NCBI GenBank assembly: GCA_963769885.1
Contig: CAVYNH010000006.1
Location: 352,001-416,000, forward strand
Direction: 5' to 3'
DNA length: 64,000 nucleotides
Origin: Methanobacteriota archaeon
GTDB lineage: Archaea > Thermoplasmatota > E2 > DHVEG-1
Positions 1-64,000 of this stretch are shown here, one piece after another (position 1 is the stretch's first letter; the number at the start of each line of letters is the position of its first letter). The notes under the pieces were generated by a model, which saw only the letters and a program-made list of their open reading frames with translations, was not told the origin of the DNA and ran no database searches. The translations under genes and the position numbers were made by a program.

Positions 1-554
1 TAGAAGACGCCAAGACCACCATTGATTTCCTCACCGGACTGAACGCAACCAACTCCACCTTCGGCGGCACCCTCGACCTCGGATGCGTCGGCATGTTCGG
101 CCACTCCTTCGGCGGCGGCAACACCGGCGTCTGCCTCCTCGAAGACGCCCGCGTCAAGGCCGGGCTGACCCTCGACGGCTACTTTACTCCTAGCTTCATG
201 AACGGCACCATCGACAAGCCCCTCCTCATGATGGTCCAGGAGGCACGCTTCGCGAACGACAGCAACACCATGTACGTCTGGAACCACACCTCCGCCGACG
301 TCTTCAAGGTCGGCATCAACGGCTCCACCCACTACGCCTTCACCGATGTCGGCGTCCTACTCTCCCACCTCGTCCCCCTCATCCCCCCCAAGCTCCTCGG
401 CTTCGGGACAATCCCGCCGAAGCGCATGGTGAACCTCACCCGAACCTATGAGGTCGCCTTCTTCGAAGTCTACCTCGACGGCAGGCCCCTCCAGGACCTC
501 CTCAACCTCTCCGCCCGCTTCCCTGAAGCCATGGTCGACTACCGACTCGGGTAG
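1..554 (+). CDS. Alpha/beta hydrolase (PAF-acetylhydrolase-like), 5' part outside the window
   Basis: Frame is open from base 3 (EDAKTTIDFL...). Nucleophile elbow GHSFGG, LDG, and GSTHYAFTD catalytic His region. Confidence 0.8.
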   Translation, partial: EDAKTTIDFLTGLNATNSTFGGTLDLGCVGMFGHSFGGGNTGVCLLEDARVKAGLTLDGYFTPSFMNGTIDKPLLMMVQEARFANDSNTMYVWNHTSADVFKVGINGSTHYAFTDVGVLLSHLVPLIPPKLLGFGTIPPKRMVNLTRTYEVAFFEVYLDGRPLQDLLNLSARFPEAMVDYRLG

Positions 555-561
555 ACCTATC

Positions 562-1017
562 ATGCCGCAGGCCGTCACCTGTGTCCTCATGCATCAGGGA
601 AAGGTGCTACTCCTGCGTCGCAGCGACCGCGTCCGCACCTACAAAGGCCTCTGGGGCGGCGTCGCCGGCTACGTCGAACCCGGCGAACAGCCCCTACAGA
701 CCGCCTACAAGGAGCTACGCGAGGAGACCGGCCTCACCCCCGACCTCGTCCGTCTCGTGGCCCAGGCAGAGCCGATTGCCTTTACCGACGTCTACCAAGG
801 TGAACGGTACGACTGGACCATCCATCCCTTCCTCTTCGAACTCCTCAAGGATAAAAACCTCAAGATCGACTGGGAACACTCAGAGTACCGCTGGGTAAAA
901 AACAAGGACCTCCCCGCCTACCAGACCGTCCCCCATTTCCCGGAGACCGTTCGACGCCTAACGCGGAAGAAGCGGATGGGGGAGCGTGGAGGTGTGGTGA
1001 GGAAGAGAGAGGAATGA
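562..1017 (+). CDS. NUDIX hydrolase
   Basis: Nudix box GYVEPGEQPLQTAYKELREETGL; DWEHSEYRW. ATG at 562 follows the upstream stop. Confidence 0.88.
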   Translation: MPQAVTCVLMHQGKVLLLRRSDRVRTYKGLWGGVAGYVEPGEQPLQTAYKELREETGLTPDLVRLVAQAEPIAFTDVYQGERYDWTIHPFLFELLKDKNLKIDWEHSEYRWVKNKDLPAYQTVPHFPETVRRLTRKKRMGERGGVVRKREE

Positions 1018-1038
1018 GAAATTGCAGGCTCCCCATCC
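974..1038 (-). ncRNA. Candidate ~65-nt stem-loop sRNA with pyrimidine-rich anti-SD-like loop
   Basis: Terminal inverted repeat GGATGGGG(G)AGC/GCTCCCCATCC. Minus-strand purine-rich BRE-like tract plus TTTAAATA (1068-1061) ends 22 nt before the stem. Confidence 0.45.
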
Positions 1039-1131
1039 ATAAAAAAAGTCTCTTTGTGAGTATTTAAATCTTCTCTTTACGATAGTTATCCATTTCATGA
1101 AAAAGAAAAGAGAAGAGCCCTCCTCCCAGGC

Positions 1132-1716
1132 CTAGTCTGCCGATGAGCGCTTATCCAACACATCCAAGATCCGCGAGATCTCCGCGGCCGTCTCCTCCAA
1201 CGGCCTGCTCGTATTGATGATGAACCACCCCGTCGCTAATCCGATCGCCTTCGACCGCACCTTCATGAACTCCTCCAACGTCTCAAACATCTCCGTCTCC
1301 GACCGCTGCTTGATCCGCTGCACCAGCTCCTGCGGCGACGCATCCAAAAAAAACAGATAACACGACGTCGGCACCAACTTCTCAAAAAACCGGTACCCCA
1401 GCCGCGCCAGCCGATGCGGCAGATACGCCGTCCCCATCAAATACCGCACCATGATCAACGTATCCGCCTGCGGATGCCGATAATACTTCCGCAGCGAATT
1501 CAACACATCCAACGCATAAAAAACACCGGCCCGCACCTGATTCAACCGCCCCTCCGCCAGCAGCGCCTGCTTCGCCCGACGACCATACAGGTTATCCACC
1601 GACGGATGCGACCGGACGATGACCGTCTCCCCCCGCGCCTCATACCGCTCCCTGATCAACGCCGCATGCGTATCCTTCCCCACCCCATCCAACCCATCCA
1701 CCACAATCAACCGCAC
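1132..1716 (-). CDS. tmk: Thymidylate kinase
   Basis: P-loop IVVDGLDGVGKDT; VRYLMGTAY equals the DRY-type motif; FLDASP. GTG start 1 nt after the upstream stop. Confidence 0.85.
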   Translation of the reverse strand: MRLIVVDGLDGVGKDTHAALIRERYEARGETVIVRSHPSVDNLYGRRAKQALLAEGRLNQVRAGVFYALDVLNSLRKYYRHPQADTLIMVRYLMGTAYLPHRLARLGYRFFEKLVPTSCYLFFLDASPQELVQRIKQRSETEMFETLEEFMKVRSKAIGLATGWFIINTSRPLEETAAEISRILDVLDKRSSAD

Positions 1717-1717
1717 C

Positions 1718-2410
1718 CTACACCACCACCAACAGCCAAAACACCACCGCCACCACGAACGGCACCGACAGATTATCCAACCCAAGCGGCGTCACCGCCT
1801 CCACCGCCGCCGCAAGCACAGAAATCCCCGCCAACGCCGCCAACAACACCGGCCACGACGGCAGCACGGAGACAGACCCGACCGCCAGATAAAACACCAC
1901 GGCAACAATCAACATCAGAAACGTCGCCAGCGCCATCACCAGCGACCCCACATAGCTCTTGGTATCATGAAACACCGTATACTTCCGTTTCCCATACTTC
2001 ACGCCAATCAGCGATGCCAGCCCATCCCCATACGACATCGCCAGAATCCCCGCCGCGATTATCACCCGTACATCAAAAAACACATACGCGAGCGCCGTCC
2101 ACGTGATCGCATAATACACCAGCCCCAGCCCATGCCCAGCCTCCGACGTCCGCCCCCGCAGCCGCTTCACCGGCGAATACGGACTCATCAAAAACGTAAA
2201 CAGGATAAACGGCCCCGCCGCCACAAACGCCATCACCCACCGCGTCTCAAACACCGGCAGCAAAAACGCCACATTCCCCGTCAAAATATGCAACAATTTC
2301 CGACTCTGCAACGGCCACCGCTTCGACAGCACCTTCTCCGTCAACACCAACAGAAACGCCACATACCCGTACACCACCGCGACACCAATCAGATCCCCGT
2401 ACCCAACCAC
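1718..2410 (-). CDS. CTP-dependent polyprenol/diacylglycerol kinase (SEC59/DGK1/VTE5 family), membrane protein
   Basis: SRKLLHI, GDGLASLIG, KSYVGS and DNLSVP motifs; multiple TM helices. Confidence 0.88.
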   Translation of the reverse strand: MVGYGDLIGVAVVYGYVAFLLVLTEKVLSKRWPLQSRKLLHILTGNVAFLLPVFETRWVMAFVAAGPFILFTFLMSPYSPVKRLRGRTSEAGHGLGLVYYAITWTALAYVFFDVRVIIAAGILAMSYGDGLASLIGVKYGKRKYTVFHDTKSYVGSLVMALATFLMLIVAVVFYLAVGSVSVLPSWPVLLAALAGISVLAAAVEAVTPLGLDNLSVPFVVAVVFWLLVVV

Positions 2411-2411
2411 C

Positions 2412-3305
2412 CTAGCCCACGCCTCCTATGAAGACACCGATCAAGAACCCAAACAACCCCACCGCCAACGCCAGCAGCGTCACCCGCCGCAGCCGCTTGA
2501 AATCCACATGACGATGCCGCAGCAGCTGCACCGACGCCCCGATCAACATCAAATCAGTCACCACGATGAACGCGAGATAAACGTAATTCCAATAATAGTG
2601 GTTCCCCGGCCAGTTCACCCCAAACGGCACGACACTCAACGCCACCGCAGCCAGATAAAACCCGACGGCCAACACCCCCGCCCCCCGCAGGCCCAGATAC
2701 CGCGGGAACGATTTCACCCCCATCGCCTCGTCGCCCGCAAAATCCTGGATATCCTTCATCACCTCCCGGCCGGCCCCGGCCAGGAACGCGATCACCGCCA
2801 CCATCAGGATCGACGGCTGTAACGCCCCAAGCCCGCCAGTGCGGGGGATGACGGCTACGCCGCCGAACACGAACGGGATCGCCATCACGTACGCGATGAA
2901 GAAGTTCCCGACCACCTTCACCCTCTTCAACACTACATCGTAGACCAACGCAAAGAGCGCCGTCACCACCGCGATGACAAAACACGGCAGGTTCACAAAG
3001 AACGCGGCCAGAAGCCCCAACGGGAACAACACCGCGGCGATGACAACCGTCGCTCGAGGCGACAAGTCACCGCGGACCAATGGCCGATCCACCCGTTTGT
3101 TCCGTCGATCGATTTCCAGATCGTAGTAATCGTTTAATGCAAACGTGCTCGCCTCCAGGAACAAGGCGACGCAGAACACCAACAGGAACATCGGCCATGG
3201 AGGCAAGGCCGGGACCGCGATGACCGCGCCGACCAGGATGCCCAACGCCAGCATCACGCCGTGCTCAAGCCGCAGCAGCTGCCAAATCGCCCTGGCTGTA
3301 TGCAT
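2412..3305 (-). CDS. UbiA-family prenyltransferase, probable digeranylgeranylglyceryl phosphate (DGGGP) synthase
   Basis: NDYYDLEIDRRNKRVDRPLVRG and REVMKDIQDFAGD Asp-rich motifs; adjacent to a geranylgeranyl reductase. Confidence 0.85.
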   Translation of the reverse strand: MHTARAIWQLLRLEHGVMLALGILVGAVIAVPALPPWPMFLLVFCVALFLEASTFALNDYYDLEIDRRNKRVDRPLVRGDLSPRATVVIAAVLFPLGLLAAFFVNLPCFVIAVVTALFALVYDVVLKRVKVVGNFFIAYVMAIPFVFGGVAVIPRTGGLGALQPSILMVAVIAFLAGAGREVMKDIQDFAGDEAMGVKSFPRYLGLRGAGVLAVGFYLAAVALSVVPFGVNWPGNHYYWNYVYLAFIVVTDLMLIGASVQLLRHRHVDFKRLRRVTLLALAVGLFGFLIGVFIGGVG

Positions 3306-3428
3306 ACCCAGCCCCACCAAATCACCAGAATCATTAAGAACTCATCGGCAACAATTCTTTCAATTATGACAAAACGTCTTTAAACTCATGCGCCGTTCCT
3401 TTCCGCAGGAACGAGAGCGAAAGGGGGC

Positions 3429-4454
3429 GTGGCTCGCATACGGGTGGATATCGTCGGCGGCAGTCTCAGCGGTCTCTGCACCGCGATTTCTCTGAAAAAG
3501 CACGACCCAGCCATCGACGTCGTCGTACACGAGAAATACAAACAGATCGGCTACAACCACGAGGGCCGGCGCTGCGGCGAAGCCCACAACGTCGAACGAG
3601 AATGGGCACACTGGAAACCCGAGCCTGCCAGCATCTTCAACGAGATCCATTCGGGCACAGTCACCATCGGCACCCATGACTACCATGCCTCGCAACCACC
3701 CGGCCGAGCGTACATTCTCAACCGCCAGGAATTTATCTGCCAGTTCTACCGTCAGGCACAACAACTGGGAGCGGCAATCCTCACCGGAGACCGAGTCAAG
3801 TCCGCAGATGACCTCGACGGAGACTTCATCGTTGATGCTTCCGGCTGCCCGAGCACCATCAAACGCGACCTCGGCTTGCCCCCGAGGTTCTATGGCACCA
3901 CGTATCAACAGACCATCGAGCATTCGAACTTCTATACTCCGCACATGGTTAGGATCATCTATACTCGTGACATGGGGTACTTTTGGATTTTCCCCCGGGA
4001 CCCGCAGAAACAGGAGATCAATCTCGGCATCGGCGTCCTCGGCGAACCAAACCACAACCTTAAAAACATCCTCGAGAAATTCAAAGCTGAACAAGGGATT
4101 AGCGGCGCCGTTAACTATACGGTCGGCGGGCTCGTCCCCCTGGGTCTGCAATATCCCCTTCGTCACGAGAACATCCTGTTCGTTGGTGATGCGGGAGTCG
4201 GCGCCTTTCCCTTTCTCGGCCAGGGCATCTACCGAGCCCTGCTCAGTGGCGACGCCGCCGGTAAATACCTCGCGCAACATCAACCAAAAAAATACCCGCT
4301 TGCCATGCAGCGTCTGTTCATCAAATGGGACGTGATTGGTCTTTTATTCATGAAAGCAAACATGTTACTTCGGAAAGTCCGTCCTACATTTTATCTTGAC
4401 TCCATGAACTTCCTGGCGCAGAGAGGAGGCGAGGAACTCAGCCTCTTCCATTAA
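3429..4454 (+). CDS. Geranylgeranyl reductase-family FAD-dependent oxidoreductase
   Basis: N-terminal Rossmann IVGGSLSG; CGEA, VDASG, GYFWIFP and VGDAGV...GQGI motifs. Confidence 0.82.
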   Translation: MARIRVDIVGGSLSGLCTAISLKKHDPAIDVVVHEKYKQIGYNHEGRRCGEAHNVEREWAHWKPEPASIFNEIHSGTVTIGTHDYHASQPPGRAYILNRQEFICQFYRQAQQLGAAILTGDRVKSADDLDGDFIVDASGCPSTIKRDLGLPPRFYGTTYQQTIEHSNFYTPHMVRIIYTRDMGYFWIFPRDPQKQEINLGIGVLGEPNHNLKNILEKFKAEQGISGAVNYTVGGLVPLGLQYPLRHENILFVGDAGVGAFPFLGQGIYRALLSGDAAGKYLAQHQPKKYPLAMQRLFIKWDVIGLLFMKANMLLRKVRPTFYLDSMNFLAQRGGEELSLFH

Positions 4455-4471: not shown

Positions 4472-5503
4472 TCATGGTTCGAGGATGACCTTGATGGAAT
4501 CCTGGGCGCTGGCGACCAGGGCGAAGCCCTTCGCCGCCTCCCGCAGAGGCAGACGGTGGGTGATCAGATCCGCGGTCTCTACCTGCTTGCTGGCGAGGAG
4601 ATTGATTGCCTCCGAGATGTCCCGGGGACTTCCCGCATAGGTTGAGACGAGTCGCAGCTGGCGGTTCCAGACGTCGAAGAGATCCACGGGGATCTTCGTT
4701 CCTGGTTCCGTCGGTGCGAAGAAGAGCACGGTCCCTCCCGGCCGGACGCTGGAGAGCGCCTGCTGCACGGCCGGTGGGGCTCCCGTGCAGGTCACGGCAA
4801 GGTCAACATATTGGCCCCCGGTCGCGTTTTTCACGGCGAGGGGGACGTCGTCTCGGGCGTTGATAGTGACGTCGGCCCCGCTTTTCTGGGCGGCCTTGAG
4901 GCGGTAGTCGGTGATGTCGGTGGCGATGATCTGGCGGGTGCCCCAGGCTCTGGCGAGCTTGATGAACAGGAGCCCGGAGATGCCGCTGCCGAGGACGAGG
5001 ATGCGTTGGCCTGCGGTGAAATTGGCCTGGTGGAGGCCGCGGATGACGCAGGCGAGCGGTTCGATGAAGACGCCGTCGTCGTAGGAGACGGAGTCCGGGA
5101 GTTTGAAGACGCCGCGGTCGACGTTGATGGCGGGGACGCGGAGGTACTCGACGAAGCCGCCGGGGTCGAAGTTCGTGGAGTGGAGGGTGTGGCAGAGGGT
5201 CTGTTGGCCGTGGAGGCAGTAGGTGCAGGTGTTGCAGGGGACGTGGTGGGAGATGAAGACGCGGTCGCCGACCTTGTAGTCGGTGATGTTCTTGCCGACT
5301 TTGGTGATGTCGCCGGTGATTTCGTGGCCGAGGACGCGGGGGGCTTTTTTGATGCGGTACCATTCCATGACGTCGCTGCCGCAGATGCCGCTGGCCTTGA
5401 CTTTGACGAGGAGCTCGTCGTCGGTGATGGTGGGGATGGGTCGTTGTTCGATGCGGACGTCGTGGTTGTTGTAGTAGACGGCGACGGTCATGGTGTTAGG
5501 CAT
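4472..5503 (-). CDS. Zn-dependent alcohol/polyol dehydrogenase (MDR; L-iditol/threonine dehydrogenase-like)
   Basis: GICGSD, GHE, structural CxxCxxC...C and GSGISG NAD-binding motifs. Confidence 0.92.
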   Translation of the reverse strand: MPNTMTVAVYYNNHDVRIEQRPIPTITDDELLVKVKASGICGSDVMEWYRIKKAPRVLGHEITGDITKVGKNITDYKVGDRVFISHHVPCNTCTYCLHGQQTLCHTLHSTNFDPGGFVEYLRVPAINVDRGVFKLPDSVSYDDGVFIEPLACVIRGLHQANFTAGQRILVLGSGISGLLFIKLARAWGTRQIIATDITDYRLKAAQKSGADVTINARDDVPLAVKNATGGQYVDLAVTCTGAPPAVQQALSSVRPGGTVLFFAPTEPGTKIPVDLFDVWNRQLRLVSTYAGSPRDISEAINLLASKQVETADLITHRLPLREAAKGFALVASAQDSIKVILEP

Positions 5504-5594
5504 AGCTGGTGGTCCTCGGGGTTTGGGTATAGGATGATGGGTTAATAAAAGTTCGAGGAGCCCTCGAGAGAAGGTCTGGGTGCGCCGAGGAGGT

Positions 5595-5912
5595 CTATCC
5601 GTAGGGGACGGCTTTTACGAATCCGAAGCCGCAAGGTTCCGTGCTGAGGTAAATGATGACGTTGGTGATGATGAAGCTTTCTTCTGAGTGGTACCGGGTA
5701 AGAGCAAGGGGATGGAACGTGATTGTGAAGAGGATGTAGGCCGTGAGGACAACGTTCGAACCGATGGTTTCGCTGTCGGTGCGACCGCGGAGAAACATCA
5801 GCTGTGATTCGATTGTCTTCGGTTAAAGTTTGGTGTAGCCTCAGTATCTCCAGGTAGAGTTAGCGCCGATGAGGATGTCTTAGAGGGTGAGGCCTTGGTC
5901 CTCGGGTGTCAT
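5595..5912 (-). pseudogene. Degenerate remnant of a beta-sandwich surface-protein domain
   Basis: One frame reads MTPEDQGLTL*DILIGANSTWRY*GYTKL*PKTIESQLMFLRG...LFTITFHPLA...PYG with three in-frame stops and host-like codon use. Confidence 0.35.
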
Positions 5913-5960
5913 TGTAAAAGTGTATTGTAAATCATTCTTTAATTGTAATAAAAGAGTATT

Positions 5961-5992
5961 AAAAAAAGGAAGAGGGGGGAGGAGGTCTCCCC
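5961..5992 (-). terminator. Hairpin plus T-tract terminator
   Basis: GGGGAG/CTCCCC stem followed on the minus strand by T7, downstream of the 1305-aa gene. Confidence 0.55.
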
Positions 5993-6006
5993 TTGGATTG
6001 TGGCTT

Positions 6007-9924: not shown

Positions 9925-9972
9925 AGTTTCTCACTTTTTTTCATATTTTTAGGATTCTGTAGGGATTACGCC

Positions 9973-11265
9973 CTACATCGTCATGCCTGTCCCTCGAATG
10001 AAGAAGAGATACACGAATGCGTCTTGCTGGGCTGTGGCCGTGGAGTCCGCGATCTCAGCGGTGACGTTTATTGTGATTGGCCCATAGCCGAGGATGATGT
10101 TGGAGCTGATGATTCGCATGGCTCCCGGTTCAAGGTCCACGATTCTGCCTGAGGTCTTCCTGCCACAGAGGAGGGAGCCGTTTGAGATGGTGATTTTCCA
10201 GGCAATCCCGACGCCTGGGGCAGTCCCGTTGTTGAAGATTCTTACCTTGACCCTGAAGAGCCCGCCGGTGATGTTGCCGATCTCAAGAACCGGTTTTTCG
10301 AGGGTCATAATGCGGATGGTCTTGGGTTCCGACCAATTGCTTTCTTCTCTGTGGGGGTCTTTAGCCTTGACCGTGATGCTGTAGTTTCCCGTCGCCGTCC
10401 AGTTGTGGGTTGCGAACGCCGTCGCCCCTGATGCAACGGGACCTTGCCAGTCGCTCGTAGTCCCATCGCCCCAGTCCCAGAAATAATACAGGGGTTCCCC
10501 CTCCGGGTCTGTTGAGTTTGTTGAGAAGGTGTACTCCTGGCCGACAAGGCCTTCCGAGAACCCTGCGGGCTGCTGGGGCGTCTCCGGAGGCAGCGAAGGC
10601 TCCTCGATGCCTGCCCAGATGTTCCAGTTATAATCAAGGAAAAAAGGTCCTCCTCCTTGAATAGTCTGAAGTTCTATCCAATGCGTCCCATCGTAGATCC
10701 AGTCCCCCTTGCCGTCAACCGCAAACTGATTATCCACTCCGAGAGGGTATTCACCAGGGACCTGATTAATCTGAATAGAAACCCAGATGTCGTGTGAAGC
10801 GTTCAGCCTCACGAAATGCGAGAGCGGTATTTCCTTCCATCCCATCCCGGTGACCGTATAGGGCTCGGTTGTGATCAATGCCCCAGGCGAGGTCGGGGTG
10901 CCTTCCCCGTAAATCTTAATCATGCCAGAGTGCTGAGGGTTTGTTGTCACGTAATGGAACCATTTCACGGTACACAGCTTCCATCCGTTATACCCGCCGA
11001 GTTCGTCAGGGGTTATCCGTATCGCGCCTTCCCAGGTGCTGATAGTTGATCCGATAGCATTCGAGTTGACGCCATTATCAAAATGAATCCACATGCCGTT
11101 GAATACCGGTGCCTGGAGGGATGATCCCCTATAATCATGGCACTCGCAGAAGACTGCCGTACTTGGTTGAGAATTTGTTGCGCCGATGAGCGTTGGGAAA
11201 ACGCTTGAGATCATGAGGAAAACGCCTAATTCACACACAATTTTCGTACTGATTCTGTTCTTCAT
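9973..11265 (-). CDS. Secreted PKD-domain protein with C-terminal CARDB-like Ig domain
   Basis: Signal peptide MKNRISTKIVCELGVFLMISS; PKD motif DPEGEPLYYFWDWGDG. Confidence 0.8.
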   Translation of the reverse strand: MKNRISTKIVCELGVFLMISSVFPTLIGATNSQPSTAVFCECHDYRGSSLQAPVFNGMWIHFDNGVNSNAIGSTISTWEGAIRITPDELGGYNGWKLCTVKWFHYVTTNPQHSGMIKIYGEGTPTSPGALITTEPYTVTGMGWKEIPLSHFVRLNASHDIWVSIQINQVPGEYPLGVDNQFAVDGKGDWIYDGTHWIELQTIQGGGPFFLDYNWNIWAGIEEPSLPPETPQQPAGFSEGLVGQEYTFSTNSTDPEGEPLYYFWDWGDGTTSDWQGPVASGATAFATHNWTATGNYSITVKAKDPHREESNWSEPKTIRIMTLEKPVLEIGNITGGLFRVKVRIFNNGTAPGVGIAWKITISNGSLLCGRKTSGRIVDLEPGAMRIISSNIILGYGPITINVTAEIADSTATAQQDAFVYLFFIRGTGMTM

Positions 11266-11640: not shown

Positions 11641-11667
11641 CCCCCTCCTCCATGCCAATACCTGGAG

Positions 11668-51746: not shown

Positions 51747-51915
51747 CTGGAAACACCTTACGCAGATGGACAAAACCATCCCCGGATAAGAATGTTACGA
51801 GGCCTTTTTTCCAGGAGAGGATTCAGGGGGTGTGAAGCGACACGGAAGAACAATCGTGGAGGGCGACCCTGTGATTCCTTGAGACGAAGTGTTGTCGCGT
51901 ATTGCGAAAAGAAGA

Positions 51916-51988: not shown

Positions 51989-52055
51989 AGGTTTCAGAGA
52001 ATGATAAACCTGATAGAAACTATGAAATATCCATCGGGATTTAATCTTACTTACG

Positions 52056-52883: not shown

Positions 52884-52934
52884 ACATTGATTACAAAATT
52901 CTTAAATTGCACAATGATTTCTTCAAGGGTTCTT

Positions 52935-55406: not shown

Positions 55407-55458
55407 CTACACATTTTTTCTTTAAAAAAGGGTATTTCGGGTATTGAAGGATTATTTG

Positions 55459-58400
55459 CTATTGTTCTAGAACCGTATCTTTGGGAGCTTCTGCCTTCCT
55501 TGTGAGTCGTCCCTGGATTCTTCGTGCGAATATTGTCAGCAGGGCGAGGACGGCGGCGGCGATGATGAGGCAGAAGCCAAGGCCGGGTCCCCATGAACAG
55601 GGGACCTTCACCTGCTCGGTGCCGCCGGGGAGGGTGACGTCAAGCGTGCCGCTACCCATGAAGCTGCCGACGCCGATCTGGGTCACTTGGGAAAAGGCGT
55701 AGTAGAAGACGCCGAGGATCATTAAAATCACGATCACCGCCAGAATTGAAAAGATGAGTGTGGTCTTCCTCAGCCGTAGGCTGGCCACCAGGCTAATGAT
55801 GAGGAGGACGCAGGCGATGCCGACGAGCAAAGACAAGAGCCCTAGCACCATGGTGACCTCCGCGGGGACCGCGCTGATTTCGCCGCCGATGGCGTTCGTC
55901 GCCTTCGTCATGGTCACGATCTGCGGGGGGATGACGAGCGTGTTGGTGGTAGTCGAGACCACGCCGGTCTGGCCGTTGAGGACCCACCAGGGGGATGCGA
56001 GGGCGATGATGAGGAGGCCGACGGTGGCGATCTTCAAGGTCGGGTTCGGTCGGCGTTTCCAGAGAAAGAAGACGAGGGCGCCGATGGCGACGGCAATGCC
56101 GAGGGCGGTTAACAGGGCATGCAGGGTCGACCCTTGGGTGGTGACGAGGTCAAGGGATTTCTCCCCTCGGACCTGGACTTGCTGTTGGGCGATGGTTTCC
56201 TGTCCTGATTGGACGAGGAGTTCGTAGTCGCCCGGAGGAATGCTGATGGTGGCGGTGCCGTCCAGGGTGATCTCAGTAGTGTTGGTCTTCTCTTGGCGTT
56301 GGACGCTGACGCTGCCGTGGGAGAGTCGGTTCGCGTAGGAGTCGTAGAGGGTCAGGTTGATGGGGAATTCGGCGGGGAAGACGATGGCAAGTGTGGTGTC
56401 TTTGTCGATGGTGAGATTGCGGTCGACTTTGAAGGTCTTGTAGGAAAGGCTGAGGCGGTAGGGGGCCGGGGGGATGTCGGCGAACTGGTAGGCGCCGGCC
56501 TGGGTCGTGGTCGCATGGATGGCAGTGGGTTGAGTCATGTCGCCGCTGGTGAGGGCAGGGTTGAGGTCGACGGCGGGGGGAAAGCCCCAGGTGTCGGTGG
56601 TGGTGAGGCTGAGGCGGTAGCGTTGGAGGGTGAAGGAGGTTTTCATGGCGATGAAGTGGCGGAGGGTGGTGAGACGGATGGTTTTGGTGCCGATTTGAAA
56701 CCCCCGATAGTTGAGTGCGAGTCGGTACGGTTTGAGAGGAGAGCAGGGGGCGGTGAGGCGGGCGGTGCCGTTTTGGTCGGTGGCGGCCTCGGCGATGGTT
56801 GCGTCGTCGAGCGTAAAGGTACAGTAGGCGTTGGGAACCGGGGTGTTGGTCTGGTCGTTGAGCGTGACGGTGATGGTGCCTTGAGAGCGGCAGCGGATGT
56901 GGATGGTGGTGTCTTGTGTGAGGTTGACGACGGCGACGCCGATGTATTGGTGTTCTTTGGCGTGGCGGGGGTTTTCGCGGTAGATTTTGATGACGTAGGT
57001 GCCGAGGTCGAGGTTGGGGAATCTGATCTTCTTGTGCAAGGAGGAGTTTTTCAAGTCGAAGATGCCGAGAATCATCTGGAGTTTTTGGCGGAGGTTCGTG
57101 CCGGAGAAGTTGAGGGAGATGGCGCCGAGGGAGAGGCGTCCGACGGTGCCTGAGGAACGGAAAGTGGTCTGTTGGTAGAGTTCGGCGTAGATGTAGGAGA
57201 GGTTCTTGCCGAGGGCGGCGGAGAGGAGGGAGCCGAGGGGAACGGAGGGGGCGTGGCGGACGTAGACGGTCAGGTTGTAGCGTGTGGTTTTCTTTTCGGT
57301 TGCGGTTGTGTTTTCCCGGAAGATGGGGACGGTTTGGATCAGGTGCTGATAGAGGGTGGATTCCTCCCCGATGGGTGTCGTGCTGGTTTTTTCCATGGTG
57401 AGGAACTCGGCCTTGTAGTGGTAGGTGTTTCCTTGGTCGATGGTGGTGAGGTGGTTGCCGTTGTGGTAGGCGGTTCTGGAGAGGGCGGTGGTTCCTGAGT
57501 CGGCTTCGAGTCCGGGGAGTTTGACGTTTTGTTTGGCCCAAGATCGGACTTGGAGGCCGTCTTCGGTGCCGTTGGTGATGCCGGTGGTGGCGCTGAAGAT
57601 GATGCTGTGGAGTTTGCCGGTGGCCGGGTCTTGGAGACTAATCCAGGCTTGTGGGCCGAGGTTGATGTCGTCCTGGGGGCTGAGGACGATCTCCGGGGTG
57701 GTGCTCTGGGGGCTGGTGGGGACGGTGTAGTTTTGGATGGTGCCATCGGTGGTGTAGACGGAAAGGCTGGGGAGGATGTCGCCGACGTTCATTTTTTGGA
57801 TAGAGGCGCTACGGGCTTTGATGGAGACGATGCCGGCGTAGAGGCCGTCTTGGATGGAAGGGTCCGGGATGGTGATGGGTTTGAGGATGGTGTGGTGGGC
57901 GTCGACCGTGATTCGTTTTGTGGTGGTGGGGCTGTAGTAGTAGGTGTAGATGTTGTCTGAGGCGATTTCTCCTTGCGGGCTGGTGCAGGTGAGGCGGACG
58001 CGCGCCATGAGGGTGCCGGTGACGAGGATGGTTTTTTTGATGTCGGTGGCGAAGGCGGTGCCGATGTAGTCCGGGGTTCCTGGGACGCCGTAGCGGAGGT
58101 CGAAGTCGGCGAGTTGGTCGAGGTTGTAGGTTTCGACGGCGGTGGAGTTGGGTTTGAATTTGATGGCGGCCAGCGCGATGGGGTTGCCGAGGAGCTGGCC
58201 TTTTTGGACAACGGTGTAGACGACGTAGCCGTCTTGGCGGATGCCGTAGTAGTCGAAGTCGATGGTCTGGCCTGGGATGGGTTCGTAGAAGTAGTGGGTG
58301 TCTTCGACGGTGATGTGGGTGGGGTAGTCGGCGGGGGGTGTTTCGGTGGGGTTGTAGAGGACGTAGAATTTGGTGTTGCTGGTGGTGGGTTCTGGGATGA

Positions 58401-58746
58401 GGAAGACGAGGCTGCAGGCGCTGACGTGGGTGTCGTCGGTGTGTTGGAGGTCGTAGGCCTGAGAGTCGATTTCTTGGGGTCCGGTGCCGTCGTCGGCGGC
58501 GACGCGGATGGAGGTGTGGGTGTCGTTGATGGCCCAGCAGGGGTTGGTGAAGGTGACGCGGATGTCGATGGGCTGGTCGGCGGCGGTGGCGTTGCCGGTG
58601 TCGATGGGGAGGGTGAGGAGCTGTTTGTACTGGAGGGTTTCAATGGCGGTGTGCGGTGAGGGTGGCTGTGCGGTAAGTGTACTTGTCGTAAGGAGAAGGA
58701 GCGTAAAGGCTATCCAGAGCCGTCCTCGCGGTGATGCTGACGCCAT
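55459..58746 (-). CDS. Large secreted/membrane protein with carboxypeptidase-regulatory-like domains and C-terminal TM helices
   Basis: Signal peptide; TDQNGTA-type prealbumin-like repeats; several C-terminal TM segments. Confidence 0.75.
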   Translation of the reverse strand: MASASPRGRLWIAFTLLLLTTSTLTAQPPSPHTAIETLQYKQLLTLPIDTGNATAADQPIDIRVTFTNPCWAINDTHTSIRVAADDGTGPQEIDSQAYDLQHTDDTHVSACSLVFLIPEPTTSNTKFYVLYNPTETPPADYPTHITVEDTHYFYEPIPGQTIDFDYYGIRQDGYVVYTVVQKGQLLGNPIALAAIKFKPNSTAVETYNLDQLADFDLRYGVPGTPDYIGTAFATDIKKTILVTGTLMARVRLTCTSPQGEIASDNIYTYYYSPTTTKRITVDAHHTILKPITIPDPSIQDGLYAGIVSIKARSASIQKMNVGDILPSLSVYTTDGTIQNYTVPTSPQSTTPEIVLSPQDDINLGPQAWISLQDPATGKLHSIIFSATTGITNGTEDGLQVRSWAKQNVKLPGLEADSGTTALSRTAYHNGNHLTTIDQGNTYHYKAEFLTMEKTSTTPIGEESTLYQHLIQTVPIFRENTTATEKKTTRYNLTVYVRHAPSVPLGSLLSAALGKNLSYIYAELYQQTTFRSSGTVGRLSLGAISLNFSGTNLRQKLQMILGIFDLKNSSLHKKIRFPNLDLGTYVIKIYRENPRHAKEHQYIGVAVVNLTQDTTIHIRCRSQGTITVTLNDQTNTPVPNAYCTFTLDDATIAEAATDQNGTARLTAPCSPLKPYRLALNYRGFQIGTKTIRLTTLRHFIAMKTSFTLQRYRLSLTTTDTWGFPPAVDLNPALTSGDMTQPTAIHATTTQAGAYQFADIPPAPYRLSLSYKTFKVDRNLTIDKDTTLAIVFPAEFPINLTLYDSYANRLSHGSVSVQRQEKTNTTEITLDGTATISIPPGDYELLVQSGQETIAQQQVQVRGEKSLDLVTTQGSTLHALLTALGIAVAIGALVFFLWKRRPNPTLKIATVGLLIIALASPWWVLNGQTGVVSTTTNTLVIPPQIVTMTKATNAIGGEISAVPAEVTMVLGLLSLLVGIACVLLIISLVASLRLRKTTLIFSILAVIVILMILGVFYYAFSQVTQIGVGSFMGSGTLDVTLPGGTEQVKVPCSWGPGLGFCLIIAAAVLALLTIFARRIQGRLTRKAEAPKDTVLEQ

Positions 58747-58973
58747 GTCCACCTCTAAAAGTATTATTGCTATATTTATATAATTATTCTCCTTTTTATC
58801 TAGTCCTCCCTTGGTTTTTTTTGCCCGCTCATCAAGAATGGGTGGAGCCAGGCATGCTTTCATTTTATGGACGCTCGAGCGGCTCCTGGTGCAAACGCCC
58901 CCGGCTCCACCAAGCCTGAGGATTAAAATACCTCGGACCCCTTCTTTCCCCAGACCGAGATAAAGGACCAGTC

Positions 58974-59936
58974 ATGCCCCAGAAAGACCCTGACCACCCC
59001 TACCTCAACGACCTCGACACCGTCGGCTTCACCCCGATTTTCATCCTCGGCCTGCACCGCAGCGGCACCAGCATCCTCTACAAGACCCTCACCGCCACCG
59101 ACCGCTTCAACCCCATCACCGCATACCACCTCATCCGCTACCACGAACTCCTCACCCATTTTCACACCCACACCACAGACCAGGCGAAGACCGACCTCAC
59201 CGCCCTCCTCCACGCCAAAGGACAGACCGACCGCGGCATCGACCGCCTCCAACTCACCGCCGACTTCCCCGAAGAATACGGTTTCCTCCTCGGCCACCAG
59301 ACCATCCGTATGAACCTCACCCCCCGCACCCTCCTCCTCTTCACCACCCTCTGCAAGAAAATCCAGTACACCGCCCAGAACACCCGCCCCCTCCTCCTCA
59401 AAAACCCGTACGACTTCCCCAACTTCCGCTACCTCAAAGCCGCCTTCCCCACCGCCCGCTTCGTCTTCATCCACCGCCACCCCCTCAAGACCCTCAGCTC
59501 CACCCTCAACGCCTGGCAGCACCTCGTCCGCACCAAAAACCCGTACACCGAACAACTCGCCCGACACTACCAACAATCCAGCGACAACCCACTCCTCCAC
59601 CTCCCGCTACGCACCGTCTTCCTTGACGCACCCGAGCTCGGCGCCGTCGCCCTCACCGCCACCGCCGCGAAGGCGACCCGCTACTACCTCACCAACATCG
59701 CCAAACTCCCCGCACGCGACTACGTCTCCATCACCTACGAACAGCTCTGCAGCCGCCCACAGCAGACCCTCGACAAGATCCTCACCGCCCTCGGCGAGCC
59801 GCCGACCGACCTCGACGCCTCAACGCTCATCAGCCCCCGCGACGTCCCCATCGACCCCACCATCCAGAAGCTTGCCCCGTACATCAAGCGGGTCATGCGG
59901 CCGTACTGCGACGCCTTCGGCTACACCATCCCCTAA
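58974..59936 (+). CDS. PAPS-dependent sulfotransferase
   Basis: PIFILGLHRSGTSILY (5'-PSB), LLKNP, FIHRHP...S (3'-PB) and YEQL motifs. Confidence 0.9.
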   Translation: MPQKDPDHPYLNDLDTVGFTPIFILGLHRSGTSILYKTLTATDRFNPITAYHLIRYHELLTHFHTHTTDQAKTDLTALLHAKGQTDRGIDRLQLTADFPEEYGFLLGHQTIRMNLTPRTLLLFTTLCKKIQYTAQNTRPLLLKNPYDFPNFRYLKAAFPTARFVFIHRHPLKTLSSTLNAWQHLVRTKNPYTEQLARHYQQSSDNPLLHLPLRTVFLDAPELGAVALTATAAKATRYYLTNIAKLPARDYVSITYEQLCSRPQQTLDKILTALGEPPTDLDASTLISPRDVPIDPTIQKLAPYIKRVMRPYCDAFGYTIP

Positions 59937-61087
59937 CTCGCCTTGAGGTCCGCCAGGTCTTTTTTCCGATACGTCTTCCCGCACCAGCGGATCTCCCGCT
60001 TGACGCTGGAGACCACCGCGTTGTAGGCATACAAGAGGAACGCGATCGGCGCCAGCAGCCCGTACCAGATCCTGTACCTGAATTTCTCCGCTGGGTATCG
60101 CATCAGCCGCTGGAACGTCAGCAGCCCGATCCAGCCGTAGATTATCTCTAGGCCGATGGTCGCAAGGAAAAAGATGCCGAACACCGTGTCCCCCAATACG
60201 AACAGGACGGCATCCATGGCCAGGACCGCGGTCACAAACAACACGCCTAGGTAATAGATGATCCAGGCGGGGAGGCTGTACCAGCGGATCCAGGTGAGCT
60301 GCTGGCTGCCCCACTGGATGAAATTCCGAATGCTCGGCTCCGCTGGGCTTTCCGCCACGCACTGGGGGACGAACCGGATTTTGTATTTTGCCTTCTTCAT
60401 CGCGTGCGTCAGGATGAGATCGTCGGAGAGGCCCTGCCGCCAGCGCGTGGCGATCCCCAGCTCCTGGAACAGAGATTTTCGCACGGCCGTGGATCCCCCC
60501 CAAGCGAAGGTCGTGATCTGATAGAACATGGCGCTGACCGTGGAGAGGCTCCAGGTGGAGATTAACGCGGATTTCAGGTTCGTCGCAAAGAACCAGCGGT
60601 AACCCGTGGAGGCACCGACCTTCGCATCGGTCAGCGGAGCGACGAGGTCGGTGAGCCAGTCTGGATGCGGCCGGATGTCAGAGTCGGCGAAGACGAGAAT
60701 TTCGGCATCCGCACTGCGATCGATGCCCGTGAGTAGCGCCGAGATTTTCCCGCTCGTCCCGGGGACCGGCACGGCGTACTCCAGGCGGGTATGCGCGAGG
60801 CCCTGGATGACCTCGCTGACAACCGGGAACGCGGGGTCCTGCGGGGAATCCAAGACGAACAGGAGGCGATAGGCAGGGTACTTCTGACGGCAGAGCGCCT
60901 GAAGATTCTCCCGAAGACCTTCGCCTTTCCCTTTGCAGGGGACAATGACGCAGACCGACGGCGTCGTAGTCGGTCTCTCCTCCCTGCGTGTCTGGAAGTA
61001 CCCGATGATGAAGAGGAACGGCAGCGCCCCGATGCCGATGATCACGAGGCTCGCCAGGGAGAGCAGGAAGACGGTGACCGGCTCCAT
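59933..61087 (-). CDS. GT2/GT21 glycosyltransferase (ceramide-glucosyltransferase/HpnI-like)
   Basis: N-terminal TM; IVPCKG, FADSD, WGGS, SDD and QQLTW motifs; C-terminal TMs; IRWCGKTY. Confidence 0.88.
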   Translation of the reverse strand: MEPVTVFLLSLASLVIIGIGALPFLFIIGYFQTRREERPTTTPSVCVIVPCKGKGEGLRENLQALCRQKYPAYRLLFVLDSPQDPAFPVVSEVIQGLAHTRLEYAVPVPGTSGKISALLTGIDRSADAEILVFADSDIRPHPDWLTDLVAPLTDAKVGASTGYRWFFATNLKSALISTWSLSTVSAMFYQITTFAWGGSTAVRKSLFQELGIATRWRQGLSDDLILTHAMKKAKYKIRFVPQCVAESPAEPSIRNFIQWGSQQLTWIRWYSLPAWIIYYLGVLFVTAVLAMDAVLFVLGDTVFGIFFLATIGLEIIYGWIGLLTFQRLMRYPAEKFRYRIWYGLLAPIAFLLYAYNAVVSSVKREIRWCGKTYRKKDLADLKAS

Positions 61088-61229
61088 AGAGGTCTAGATG
61101 AAGGAAACGCCGACAACCCTTAAAAGATGTTCTCATCACAAAACCCAGGAAAAGAAATAATTCAGATTCCCTCACCGTCTCCCCCCAGTCCAATCCTTAT
61201 ATACCCAGATGCCGTACACGCCTCCCATC

Positions 61230-61826
61230 ATGAGCACCCTCCTGGCCGTCGAGCATTGCGAACGCGGCCTCTCCGACTGGCTCTTCCTAGAATACCGGCA
61301 CGCAGCCACGATCTGGGAACCCGACGTTCTCTTCACCAACGTCAGCAGCAAGACAGCCACAACGAAGCTCCTCACCATCGGCCACGTGACACGCGAGCCC
61401 GTCAACACCCACCTCAAAGGCCGCCGCTGCATCATCCTCGACCCCAAAGCCACCACACCCCTGTCAACCCGGGACTTCACCAGGCTGCATGCCATCGTCA
61501 TCGGCGGGATCCTCGGCTACAAGAACCCGCGCGGCCGCACCAAGACCCTGATCAGCGACCACTCATCCTTCGAGACCCGCCACATCGGCCCCATCCAACT
61601 CACCATCGACGGCGCCGCCCTCGTCGCCAAGGCCGTCGCCCTCGGCCTGCGCATCAAAGACATCGAGATCGCCTACGAAGTCGAAATCACCCACGACGCC
61701 GTCCACTCCACCATCCTGCCCTTCGGCTACCCGATCCTGGAGGGAAAACCCATCATCACCCCTGGCCTCATCGAGTACCTGATGAGGAAAGACGAACAAA
61801 AAAACAAAGAAAAGAAGTCGACTTAA
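61230..61826 (+). CDS. SPOUT methyltransferase, Sfm1-like
   Basis: VEH....WLFLEY, LDPKA, IGGILG...PRGRT, RHIGPIQLTIDGA and LPFGYP motifs. Confidence 0.85.
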   Translation: MSTLLAVEHCERGLSDWLFLEYRHAATIWEPDVLFTNVSSKTATTKLLTIGHVTREPVNTHLKGRRCIILDPKATTPLSTRDFTRLHAIVIGGILGYKNPRGRTKTLISDHSSFETRHIGPIQLTIDGAALVAKAVALGLRIKDIEIAYEVEITHDAVHSTILPFGYPILEGKPIITPGLIEYLMRKDEQKNKEKKST

Positions 61827-62077
61827 TTCTCCTTGACCGCAAGGTTCGTCGCGACCGGACCGCGCTTCGACTCCGAAACGCAGTACGTCACGCGATCCCC
61901 CTTCTCAAGAAAAATCGTCCAAAACGGCAGCACGGATTTATGGACGAACACCCGCTGACCATCCTCACCGCGGATGAACCCAAAACCCTTCCGCACATCA
62001 TAAAACGACACAATACCTTGAATACTCTCTTTCAAACACTCACTTTCTTCATTGAATTTTCTTTTCTGTGACATCAT
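61823..62077 (-). CDS. Cold-shock domain protein
   Basis: RNP1 KGFGFI, RNP2 VFVH; GPVATNL. Confidence 0.88.
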   Translation of the reverse strand: MMSQKRKFNEESECLKESIQGIVSFYDVRKGFGFIRGEDGQRVFVHKSVLPFWTIFLEKGDRVTYCVSESKRGPVATNLAVKEN

Positions 62078-62232
62078 AAGAAATCACTTTAAACTGGAAA
62101 ACGGAACATCAGGACTCGTTGTTCACCAAAAGGCTTGGCGACAAAACGCCGACTCTGTTTTCAACGGTTTGACCACCCCATACCATAAACGTCTTTAAAT
62201 ACTTTTCTCACCGTACCCACCGACCAACCACA

Positions 62233-62709
62233 ATGCCACCCGCCACCACCGGCACCATCAGAAGAGCCACCCCTGCGGACCTCCCCGCCATCATCGCACT
62301 CGAACAAGCCTGCTTCCCCGGCCCCCTCGCCTACTCACGTAGACAACTCCGTTACCTCCTCACCCACGCCCACAGCACCGTCCTCGTCGAAACCACAGAC
62401 ACCACGCTGCGCGGCTTCGTCATCATCCTCTACCGCCACGGATCAAAAACCGCCGGCATCGAAACCATCAACGTCGACCCCGCCCACCAACGCCGCGGCA
62501 TCGCCCGCCAGCTCCTCACCGCCGCCGAGACCGAGATGCACGCCCACGGCGTCCGTCGCATCCGCCTCGAAGTCTCCACACAAAACGCCCCCGCCCTCGC
62601 CCTCTACTACCAGGCAGGCTACCGAAAGACCGAGCTCCTCCCCAACTACTACATCTTCTCCCATCACGGTTCGCGCGACGCCTTCCGCATGGTCAAAGAC
62701 CTCACCTGA
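62233..62709 (+). CDS. GNAT acetyltransferase (RimI-like)
   Basis: VDPAHQRRGIA, LEV..QN..ALALY...GY...PNYY. Confidence 0.9.
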   Translation: MPPATTGTIRRATPADLPAIIALEQACFPGPLAYSRRQLRYLLTHAHSTVLVETTDTTLRGFVIILYRHGSKTAGIETINVDPAHQRRGIARQLLTAAETEMHAHGVRRIRLEVSTQNAPALALYYQAGYRKTELLPNYYIFSHHGSRDAFRMVKDLT

Positions 62710-64000
62710 TTCGAAGACACCCACTCCTCGTTCTGCAGCACACAATACCCCCTCGTGTGTGCCTCCATAATCGACAGCAGCCCCTCACGGAACTGCTCCG
62801 GCACATACGACATGCTGCATGTCGGCCCTTCATGAATCCGCTCCACATGGTCCAAGCTGTGGACTTCCGTACCACCGCCACCCTGCATCAGGAAAAACGA
62901 CTGCTCCTTCTCATCCTGATCCAGCTTCAGGTTCGCTGACTTCACCCGCATAGGGAACAATTCAATGGCCTCATCCGTATAATTGATGAGCCGCGGGTCA
63001 GTCTTATTGGCTGAGAGGAACAACAGAACCCCCATGCACTTCGAACACGTACCACACGGCATGACCTTCTCCCCTTCGATGTGGCACGAGTGGCATGACC
63101 GCTGGTTCTTCGCCAGCTCCGGGTACCGCGAAAACAAGATCCGCTCGACAACCAACCCAGTCACGGACCGCAGCGCGGACCACTGGACCAGCCCCGACAT
63201 CCGCCGGTTATACCACAGGTTCATCCGCTGGTCGAACGCGACATCCTGATCATAGACGCCGTAATAGTCAACAAGCCCCTTGAATGACGGCGTTATCCGT
63301 AAATCGTCGAACTCGCTGCCGAGGAGGAGATTGCCGATCCGGCGCTCAGAGAATAGAGGCATCAAAGAGAAGACATAGTATGGAAAGATGCACATGCGAA
63401 TGGGATAGACATCCGCCCGGATCTGCCGATGATCCTTCCTGATGAACGGCAGATGGTCAAGCATGAAAAGGTAGAATCGGTCCACGTTCGTCCACACCCG
63501 ATTGGTGTTCGGCTCGGTCTGCTGATGGTACCGATAGGCAGTCATCGCGGTGCGCCAATGTCCGCCGCTCTCATTGACGTAGAGCGGGTGGACGTCCATG
63601 CCCATTTCCTTGAGCATCCCGTAGGTCGTGAGGCTCTCTTTACCGCCGCTGGATAAGATTCCGCAGCGCTTGTTATTAAAATTTTGTTGCAGAGGGGCAT
63701 CCATGCTGATGCTCGCAGGGATGAACTGGGACTTTGGTTGCGCCGCCGCAGCGGTGGCCTCCTCCTCAGGAACTTGGTAGCCAGGAAGCAGGTAGTCTGC
63801 CGTGGGTTTCACCAGCTCATGGATGTAGGTCTCGCTGCAGAAGACCGTGTTGAGGTCGTTGAGCAGACCGAGGTCTGCCGAGCTGACGGGGAATTGTAAC
63901 GTGAACCGCTCGGTGAACAGGCCGTAGTTGAGCAACGGCATGCAGAAGGCGAGACGGAGCAGGGGGAGATGCTCAGGGGCAATCGGGTCCTGGTACTGCA
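62664..64000 (-). CDS. PP-loop ATPase-fold protein with C-terminal Cys/His metal site (QueC/MurL-like); 5' end outside the window
   Basis: LSSGGKES PP-loop variant; RSCHSCH...PCGTCSKC. Confidence 0.7.
   Translation of the reverse strand, partial: QYQDPIAPEHLPLLRLAFCMPLLNYGLFTERFTLQFPVSSADLGLLNDLNTVFCSETYIHELVKPTADYLLPGYQVPEEEATAAAAQPKSQFIPASISMDAPLQQNFNNKRCGILSSGGKESLTTYGMLKEMGMDVHPLYVNESGGHWRTAMTAYRYHQQTEPNTNRVWTNVDRFYLFMLDHLPFIRKDHRQIRADVYPIRMCIFPYYVFSLMPLFSERRIGNLLLGSEFDDLRITPSFKGLVDYYGVYDQDVAFDQRMNLWYNRRMSGLVQWSALRSVTGLVVERILFSRYPELAKNQRSCHSCHIEGEKVMPCGTCSKCMGVLLFLSANKTDPRLINYTDEAIELFPMRVKSANLKLDQDEKEQSFFLMQGGGGTEVHSLDHVERIHEGPTCSMSYVPEQFREGLLSIMEAHTRGYCVLQNEEWVSSNQVRSLTMRKASREP

Follow-up and report, generated by a model that had tools for sequence, protein, structure and literature searches.

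Skews in archaeal chromosomes have been attributed to gene direction and translation, with few strand-specific mutations in archaea (PMC12999951; bioRxiv 10.1101/2023.11.15.567178). Intense, correlated GC and TA skews of both signs on one strand have been described in GRINS, defined as duplicated segments >500 bp in length and >80% identical within polyketide synthase clusters and linked to gene conversion; the study that described them proposed error-prone synthesis, producing C→T and A→G changes, although the mechanism is unknown (PMC8256042). Here, we analyse a 64,000 nt stretch of DNA (the window; C6:352001-416000) from the archaeal genome G000, which is metagenome-assembled (2.09 Mb, 7 contigs, 92% complete) and whose relatives, found with the FtsY protein encoded in the window, are uncultured Thermoplasmata/Thermoplasmatales metagenome-assembled genomes (MAGs) of sediment origin. 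A first-pass annotation of the window had reported kilobase-scale C/A- and G/T-rich domains that alternate along the DNA. The window is shown to be one part of a wave of strand-asymmetric substitution that runs through the whole genome, with a polarity locked to chromosome position and dependent on lineage. A full-text literature search found no report of archaeal chromosomes with skew domains that are both kilobase-scale and independent of gene direction.

A genome-wide wave of strand-asymmetric substitution

Keto skew on the + strand, computed in 500-bp windows, ranges from -0.67 to +0.54 across the window, with a standard deviation of 0.252 compared with 0.044 in 200 shuffles (largest shuffle 0.052). 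GC skew reaches +/-0.5-0.78, with TA skew of the same sign, and is most extreme at 33.5-34.5k, where GC skew is -0.74 to -0.78 (-0.78 at 34.0-34.5k) and keto skew -0.58 to -0.67. Every block listed in the first-pass annotation was recovered at about the position given for it. The + strand is C/A-rich at 1-3.9k, 11.6-18.7k (weaker), 22.9-25.4k, 30.3-35.4k, 42.9-47.3k and 59-63.1k, and G/T-rich at 4.5-10.1k, 25.8-30.1k, 35.9-37.6k, 39.3-42.5k and 55.5-58.7k.

Stop codons are absent from both strands of skewed DNA, so long open reading frames (ORFs) arise on either strand, as seen on both strands in the ORF listing of the window, and the strand of each gene was therefore settled via Pfam. Genes were called genome-wide with a purpose-built three-class codon-model caller (~1,490 genes, checked with Pfam) and classified by S3, the GC skew at third positions of the sense strand, as C-type (S3 below -0.3) or G-type (S3 above +0.3). 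Pfam-verified C-type genes on the + strand (Lrp/AsnC, peptidase M28, a peptidase C25 fragment, metallophosphoesterase, AA kinase and sulfotransferase) and verified G-type genes on the minus strand (MscS, DUF362, PD-(D/E)XK, NUDIX, SDR, thymidylate kinase and UbiA; 52-60% G and 11-26% T at third positions) occupy the same + strand C-rich domains, so that a single DNA polarity spans both gene directions. The minus strand also carries C-type genes with 61-82% C at third positions, encoding peptidase C25, nitroreductase, alpha/beta hydrolase and a beta-helix protein. The minus-strand genes that had been singled out earlier within C/A blocks are genuine by Pfam (PD-(D/E)XK, NUDIX and SDR), with 52-60% G and 3-7% A at third positions, and thymidylate kinase and UbiA are further verified examples. 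Two details changed: a gene drawn at 16066-18345 is real coding sequence but comprises two genes (MscS and DUF362/Fer4), and ORF 1718-2410, which does lie in a C/A block, has no Pfam match on either strand.

The bias acts on DNA rather than on codon choice. For example, two-fold degenerate sites have C:T at 93:7 and A:G at 76:24 in C-type genes, G:A at 92:8 and T:C at 70:30 in G-type genes, and G:A at 76:24 and C:T at 66:34 in unskewed genes. These biases are exact mirror images and include changes that lower GC, and neither GC pressure nor translational selection therefore explains them. Four-fold sites reach up to 82% C on one strand and 73% G on its complement, indicating that transversions toward C (or G) contribute too, while the independence of the bias from flanking bases argues against a motif-specific deaminase or methylation. 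Intergenic gaps are likewise skewed, in the direction of the domain in which they lie (GC skew -0.30 and +0.32, compared with 0.02 in neutral domains), which together with the mirrored two-fold sites identifies a substitution bias at the DNA level and excludes codon selection, bearing out the earlier view that ordinary codon bias is not responsible. The bias is so strong that protein composition is reshaped. As had been proposed from the translations, C-type genes exceed G-type genes in Thr (10.1% versus 4.4%), His (3.8 versus 1.9) and Pro (5.9 versus 4.5), and G-type genes exceed C-type genes in Val (10.7 versus 4.9), Gly (8.8 versus 6.3) and Arg (7.2 versus 4.9); Ile and Asn are also elevated on the C side and Glu on the G side.

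The genome divides into 303 polarity domains, whose cores have a median length of 3.9 kb. The distribution of S3 is broad (mode near -0.75, mean -0.27, tail to +0.8), with a C-rich sense strand in 52% of genes and a G-rich one in 11.5%. Gene direction explains 29% of the variance in third-position skew on the + strand (R2 0.29) and the remaining 71% is independent of it, so the claim that the skew ignores gene orientation is largely correct but overstated, given this contribution and the mostly C-rich sense strands. S3 is positively correlated between same-strand neighbours (r=+0.60) and negatively between divergent (-0.46) and convergent (-0.44) neighbours, a pattern that holds among confidently called genes alone, and divergent pairs are more often of mixed C+G type (30%) than C+C (19%). 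Similarly, in the ribosomal-protein cluster at C4:271.9-288.2k, where all genes lie on the + strand, third-position skew moves smoothly from -0.8 through 0 to +0.35, then to -0.84 and +0.85. Skew strength increases with GC content, which is patchy (0.28 to 0.70), and AT-rich islands are flat.

The wave has a preferred length and no replichore-scale component. Skew autocorrelation passes through zero at 3 kb, with negative values at 4-7 kb (minimum -0.255 at 6 kb), whereas that of gene direction never becomes negative. Likewise, the power spectrum of the skew has its maximum at 10-18 kb, with roughly five-fold less power at wavelengths above 50 kb, while the gene-direction spectrum rises continuously with wavelength. 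Means over 40 kb stay within +/-0.19, following gene-strand bias only, with no step at the origin candidate at C6:261.8k. The number of domains, the small 40-kb means, the missing origin step and the suppressed long-wavelength power all uphold the earlier exclusion of replichore skew. The first-pass annotation had named two outcomes that would tell against its reading, namely skew fully predicted by gene strand plus expression level, and domain edges at recent inversion or misassembly points in a genome with one ordinary replichore skew; neither holds. A two-component model combining replichore and transcription effects was also considered and is ruled out by the skew autocorrelation and the absence of an origin step in the 40-kb means.

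The two kinds of polarity change differ. At G|C switches, defined as those with C-rich strands pointing outward, the transition is sharper than at the opposite C|G kind (0.56 versus 0.36, p=2e-6) and lies closer to a gene end (median 75 bp, versus 210 bp for C|G and 295 bp for random points). Among switches without a change of gene direction, the median distance to a gene end is 41 bp for G|C and 301 bp for C|G (p=0.001). Divergent genes flank 48 of 78 G|C switches. In contrast, C|G switches are gradual, unanchored and placed like random points. Runs of G-type genes have an opposite-strand C-type neighbour almost as often on the read-through side (49) as on the upstream side (57), indicating that polarity spreads symmetrically and is not directed downstream.

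Polarity is conserved between close relatives and differs among more distant ones. Comparisons were made with the independently assembled sister species G001 and with other genera of the family, including G014, G015 and G051. Between G000 and G001, S3 of orthologs is correlated at r=0.90 (43 orthologs, 31/31 signs in agreement) with ~40% of four-fold sites differing, the ribosomal-protein cluster gives r=0.88, and the gene order of window positions 28.5-47.7k is common to both with agreeing skew signs. Net four-fold changes toward C between these species are of similar size from G, A and T, and paralogs of one family occur as both C-type and G-type. In the colinear ribosomal cluster of G014, L4-L23-L2 is G/T-rich (+0.44 to +0.55), as opposed to C/A-rich in G000 (-0.35 to -0.63), while G015 and G051 have partial versions of the skew. 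Third positions are AT-rich and skew is flat in most of the 25 sampled genera of the family, indicating that the trait is derived. Weaker waves are present at loci L035 (G014), L030 (G015), L038 (G051) and L079 at just 37-48% third-position GC, with G014 out of phase with G000, so the trait arose or spread more than once, or predates the rise in GC.

Processes that could set the polarity

Our tentative preference, which we place somewhat short of an even chance, is that strand-biased DNA synthesis or repair tracts run outward, in both directions, from many fixed intergenic start sites. A polar DNA process would begin bidirectionally at each site and fade or meet its neighbour a few kb away. 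Polarity flips about every 4 kb, and genes are mostly, though not always, co-oriented with it. In each domain the equilibrium of one strand is driven toward G and T, the complement thereby turning C- and A-rich. On the G/T-rich strand, the composition implies C→T and A→G substitutions as well as others that yield G. Under our reading, the strand running 5' to 3' outward from a start site would become C/A-rich, and copying or repair errors in this lineage would differ strongly between strands. The tracts, whether of DNA synthesis or of strand exposure, could stem from replication that is origin-independent or recombination-dependent, or from the resection and resynthesis that accompany break repair. 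The profile expected of many origins is found here in several respects, as sharp, anchored switches of one sign alternate with gradual switches of the other, the long-range mean is zero and spacing is preferred. The first-pass annotation had suggested that strand-asymmetric mutation or repair acts locally, or that initiation sites are many and dispersed. This class of cause fits the geometry but is unproven; the switch points have no motif and the ORB motif is single.

The putative chromosomal origin offers one point of reference. The genome's one exact ORB core, GTTCCAGTGGAAA, is located in an AT-rich gap next to orc1/cdc6 at C6:261.9k, and in G001 cdc6 is accompanied by a cluster of this element. 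Both genomes have a G|C switch there, and in G000 the Pfam-verified genes flanking it are all on the minus strand (NucS/Cdc6 on one side, PRC-barrel/CDC48 on the other). The switch is thus of the anchored kind at the sole site where two-directional initiation can be independently inferred. Its polarity persists for just a few kb, with the strand leading away from the origin C/A-rich. The candidate oriC spans C6:261631-262032 in G000 (L134:3131-3533), where a very AT-rich stretch separating cdc6 from the PRC-barrel/CDC48 pair is bordered by the exact ORB core and a degenerate copy; the arrangement is conserved in G001 (L135:4851-5264), and NucS adjoins cdc6.

Several observations weigh against start sites of this kind. 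A genome scan for dispersed ORB elements gave 54 matches within two mismatches compared with 79 for a control pattern, so additional start sites would have to do without Orc1 sites, and to our knowledge such starts at roughly one per 7-12 kb would be of unprecedented density. The origin-recognition elements that a multi-origin profile would include are missing from the switch sites, the ORB core being unique, and a motif search found no k-mer enriched in G|C intergenic gaps relative to other gaps after multiple testing. Arm strengths on either side of divergent gaps are anticorrelated, unlike the behaviour of a simple shared start-site frequency. Two further features fit a promoter-linked process equally, namely the C-rich sense strand of most genes and the mean skew of long genes, which is strongest 300-1500 nt from the start and weaker toward the 3' end. 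No gene gain or loss explaining the onset was found among 25-41 genomes of the family, as NucS, Orc1/Cdc6 (two copies), PolB, EndoV and UDG occur in skewed and flat lineages alike. Moreover, fork or repair direction is deduced from composition alone, and bacterial leading strands are G/T-rich, which is opposite to the polarity proposed here.

No Y-family polymerase was found in the same set of 25-41 genomes. A shorter family-B DNA polymerase (C3:60006-61097 in G000; C9:44538-45626 in G001) has a weak two-piece match to Pfam DNA_pol_B (E ~1e-17 to 1e-22), a form present in G000, G001, G003 and G018, with other genera matching at ~1e-32 to 1e-36. It is a divergent subtype whose distribution does not match that of the skew, as G003 is flat.

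Transcription-coupled mutation or repair is the main competing explanation, and we consider it possible but rather unlikely. Promoters firing in both directions, or reading through weak terminators, would make the non-template strand C/A-rich for a few kb, and genes under a stronger opposing transcript would become G-type. It accommodates the excess of C-rich over G-rich sense strands, the 5' peak of skew in long genes, the tracking of gene-strand bias by 40-kb skew (r about -0.75) and the position of G|C switches in promoter-bearing intergenic gaps, many with divergent flanks. Third-position and non-coding skew is likewise opposite to gene-strand bias in Haloferax (PMC12999951). In addition, no + strand T5+ run occurs at 44.7k-47.8k, where a domain passes antisense through the NUDIX, SDR and lyase genes, although this observation is confounded by composition. 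However, polarity does not follow the sense strand of each transcription unit, as indicated by the R2 of 0.29, the ribosomal-protein operon that flips sign repeatedly under constant gene direction, the opposite sign of its L4-L23-L2 start in G014 and the predominance of C+G over C+C divergent pairs. C-type neighbours lie about equally upstream and on the read-through side of G-type runs, and the long-wavelength pattern of gene direction is not transmitted to the skew. Known transcription-linked asymmetry, in bacteria and humans, gives a G+T-rich sense strand, a sign opposite to that found here, which also counts against this explanation.

A bolder extension of our preferred reading of outward synthesis or repair tracts, which we regard as unlikely, is that the skew wave is an evolution-averaged map of fork or repair-synthesis direction. 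The 2-Mb chromosome would then be copied from 150-300 ORB-independent intergenic sites, primed by recombination or R-loops, with the cdc6 origin merely one among them and the pattern exposed by lineage-specific strand-biased errors. If polarity does record the direction of DNA synthesis, sequence alone would yield a kilobase-resolution map of copying or repair starts in an uncultured archaeon and, if true, this would be relevant to the open question of whether archaeal replication can proceed independently of origins, driven by recombination.

Skew produced by gene conversion, as in GRINS, would need no fixed start sites if error-prone synthesis accompanied frequent conversion among the chromosome copies of a polyploid cell. 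The signature matches, with correlated GC and TA skews, a third-position peak, both signs on one strand and a Gly/Val versus Pro/Thr/His shift (PMC8256042), and skew strength rises with GC, as expected if GC-biased conversion also acts. Nevertheless, this process is improbable, as repeats reaching 500 bp and 80% identity are absent from the window and the skew is chromosome-wide rather than confined to repeated modules. Random conversion tracts would neither keep polarity in place across species (r=0.90) nor anchor solely G|C switches at gene ends, and polyploidy is itself an assumption.

We give very little credence to selection on strand composition, through a translational preference for C-ending codons or for unstructured C/A-rich mRNAs. 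C-type genes do include those for ribosomal proteins, EF-1alpha, EF-2 and the thermosome, and the similar four-fold changes toward C from G, A and T resemble a fixation bias. Against this, non-coding DNA is skewed too, G-type genes are exactly complementary (T over C, G over A), opposite-strand neighbours have a common DNA polarity, the same genes are opposite-signed in G014 and paralogs occur in both types.

Slightly less credible again is a mosaic of small inversions or foreign DNA in a genome with one ordinary strong replichore skew. Patchy GC and skewless AT-rich islands do indicate that some DNA is recent. An inversion leaves the sense-strand skew of a gene intact, however, and cannot make G-type genes inside a conserved colinear operon such as the oscillating, one-strand ribosomal cluster. 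Gene order and signs at 28.5-47.7k are common to G001, flat AT-rich relatives have orthologs of C-type and G-type genes alike, and there is neither replichore-scale skew nor a step at the origin candidate. Finally, an assembly or sequencing artefact, for which the metagenomic origin of the 7 contigs leaves some room, has a negligible chance, given that the wave recurs gene by gene in the independently assembled sister species, that proteins encoded by the skewed frames match Pfam strongly and that weaker versions occur in other genera.

Features of the window

The domains of the window and the genes within them are listed in Table 1.

Table 1 Polarity domains, switches and near-neutral stretches of the window, with the genes they contain.
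Feature	Coordinates	Content
C/A-rich + strand domain	1-3900	Continues upstream of window; + C-type gene ending at 554; minus G-type thymidylate kinase 1132-1785, ORF 1718-2410, UbiA 2412-3320
G/T-rich + strand domain	4500-10100	Minus C-type genes 4472-5503 and beta-helix/Ig surface protein 6007-9924
+ strand C-rich at third positions	11600-18700	+ C-type AA kinase 12719-13393, metallophosphoesterase 15395-16024; minus G-type FtsY 13413-14600 (weak), MscS 16066-17172, DUF362 17257-18357
AT-richer, near-zero skew	20000-22800	GC 0.40-0.48; caspase-like gene 21077-21970
C/A-rich + strand domain	22900-25400	Fic/DOC gene 23388-24707 (+) between two minus-strand G-type ORFs
G/T-rich + strand domain	25800-30100	Minus C-type peptidase C25 26024-27421 (82% C at third positions), nitroreductase 28502-29770
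Sharp G|C switch	30150-30320	AT-richer gap (GC 0.46) between two minus-strand genes; gene direction constant
C/A-rich + strand domain	30300-35400	Minus G-type PD-(D/E)XK nuclease 30324-31592; + C-type peptidase M28 31704-33383, ORF 33528-34868 (skew peak), C25 fragment 34873-35748
G/T-rich + strand domain	35900-42500	Dip at 37.8-39.3k; minus C-type PQQ beta-propeller 35774-37594, alpha/beta hydrolase 39531-40781, ORF 41401-42468
C/A-rich + strand domain over converging genes	42900-47300	+ C-type Lrp/AsnC 42866-43309, ORFs 44324-44647, 44805-45287; minus G-type NUDIX 45303-45806, SDR 45770-46630, beta-eliminating lyase 46654-47703
Mixed stretch	47500-58700	Weak G/T 47.5-51k; AT-richer, near-zero skew 49.5-55.4k with two tRNA-Val; strong G/T 55.5-58.7k over minus C-type surface protein 55459-58863
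C/A-rich + strand domain	58950-63100	+ C-type sulfotransferase 58974-59936, ORFs 61209-61826, 62233-62709; minus gene 59933-61087 near neutral
Next G/T-rich + strand domain begins	63400-64000	Extends past window end

In the domain over converging genes, the skew declines gradually within the beta-eliminating lyase gene. The near-skewless stretch that carries the caspase-like gene is probably younger DNA, not yet reshaped by the bias. A 393-bp direct repeat of 92% identity (22900-23292 and 24760-25152) lies within the two G-type minus-strand ORFs flanking the Fic/DOC gene and looks like a duplicated gene end or cassette boundary. The ORF at the skew peak encodes 446 aa rich in Thr, Leu, Pro and His, with a signal-peptide-like start and no Pfam match, and stops 4 nt ahead of the peptidase C25 fragment, whose own Pfam match starts at profile position 90. 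In G001 the ortholog of the region 33528-35748 spans the C25 part only, and the ORF and fragment may together represent a single gene interrupted by a stop, or a domain that the composition drive has eroded. Further along, two minus-strand tRNA-Val(TAC) genes (49616-49689 and 51914-51989) bracket a CBS-domain gene and a small ORF, beside an AT-richer, near-skewless stretch with a second UbiA gene and a PEP-utilising enzyme (52056-55406), and this region may be an integration scar or a recent acquisition. Elsewhere in the genome, two AT-rich, skewless islands of 8-10 kb (GC 0.28-0.43) lie at C4:264000-271500, just upstream of ribosomal protein L3, and at C6:265000-275000, beside the origin candidate. 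The codon-model caller found zero genes in either, and both are probably recently inserted elements.

The skew domains are also a hazard for annotation, as they would mislead gene callers and codon-based tests of horizontal transfer. For example, false ORFs of at least 400 aa lie opposite real minus-strand genes at 26072-27397 (+, opposite 26024-27421) and 28541-29788 (+, opposite 28502-29770). Starts are over-extended in skewed domains, as in the hydrolase ORF 39531-40781, whose first ~55 residues are His/Arg-rich and whose G001 counterpart has an in-frame TGA.

Comparison with described systems

The skew resembles that of GRINS, as mean absolute GC and TA skews exceed 0.15 and are correlated here, and the third-position maximum and the shift between Gly/Val and Pro/Thr/His recur. 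The differences lie in the setting. No base of the window falls within a repeat >500 bp and >80% identical, the sole repeat being the 393-bp pair, and the skewed genes are ordinary single-copy enzymes, surface proteins and ribosomal proteins rather than modular repeats. Here, skew forms a wave along a whole archaeal chromosome, with a preferred length and a position kept across species.

In geometry, the wave is similar to the N-domains of eukaryotes, in which abrupt skew jumps at fixed start sites are followed by gradual reversal between them, with a zero long-range mean and co-oriented genes. Mammalian N-domains extend over hundreds of kb with an amplitude of a few percent, whereas the wave described here has a scale of ~12 kb and an amplitude of up to 0.8, and its own start sites are putative.

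Replichore skew splits codon usage in Borrelia burgdorferi. Similarly, Lawsonia intracellularis has G/T- and C/A-rich strands in non-coding DNA as well as at third positions, strand-dependent codon and amino-acid use, and a switch at the origin (PMC2671203), all of which have counterparts here. Bacterial replichores nonetheless make two polarity domains per chromosome, compared with ~300 in this archaeon, which has no replichore-scale component. The bacterial rule is also reversed at the archaeal origin candidate, where the outward-leading strand is C/A-rich and the switch lasts a few kb.

Vertebrate mitochondrial DNA offers a further parallel, as one strand loses C/A and gains T/G, the sense strand of most genes is C/A-rich and G-poor and the rare gene on the other strand is mirrored (PMC3269012). 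The same loss of C/A and gain of T/G by one strand at neutral sites is found here, at two-fold sites and in intergenic DNA. Mitochondrial DNA has one polarity per molecule, set by strand-displacement replication, while polarity in this genome alternates along a 2-Mb chromosome.

Among archaea, the third-position and non-coding GC skew of Haloferax, opposite to gene-strand bias, has the same sign as the gene-linked component observed here. Compared with the archaeal surveys, however, 71% of third-position variance in this genome does not depend on gene direction, and the skew is also strong in non-coding DNA, making the source genus a clear counter-example to the view that archaeal skews are driven by gene direction with few strand-specific mutations (PMC12999951).

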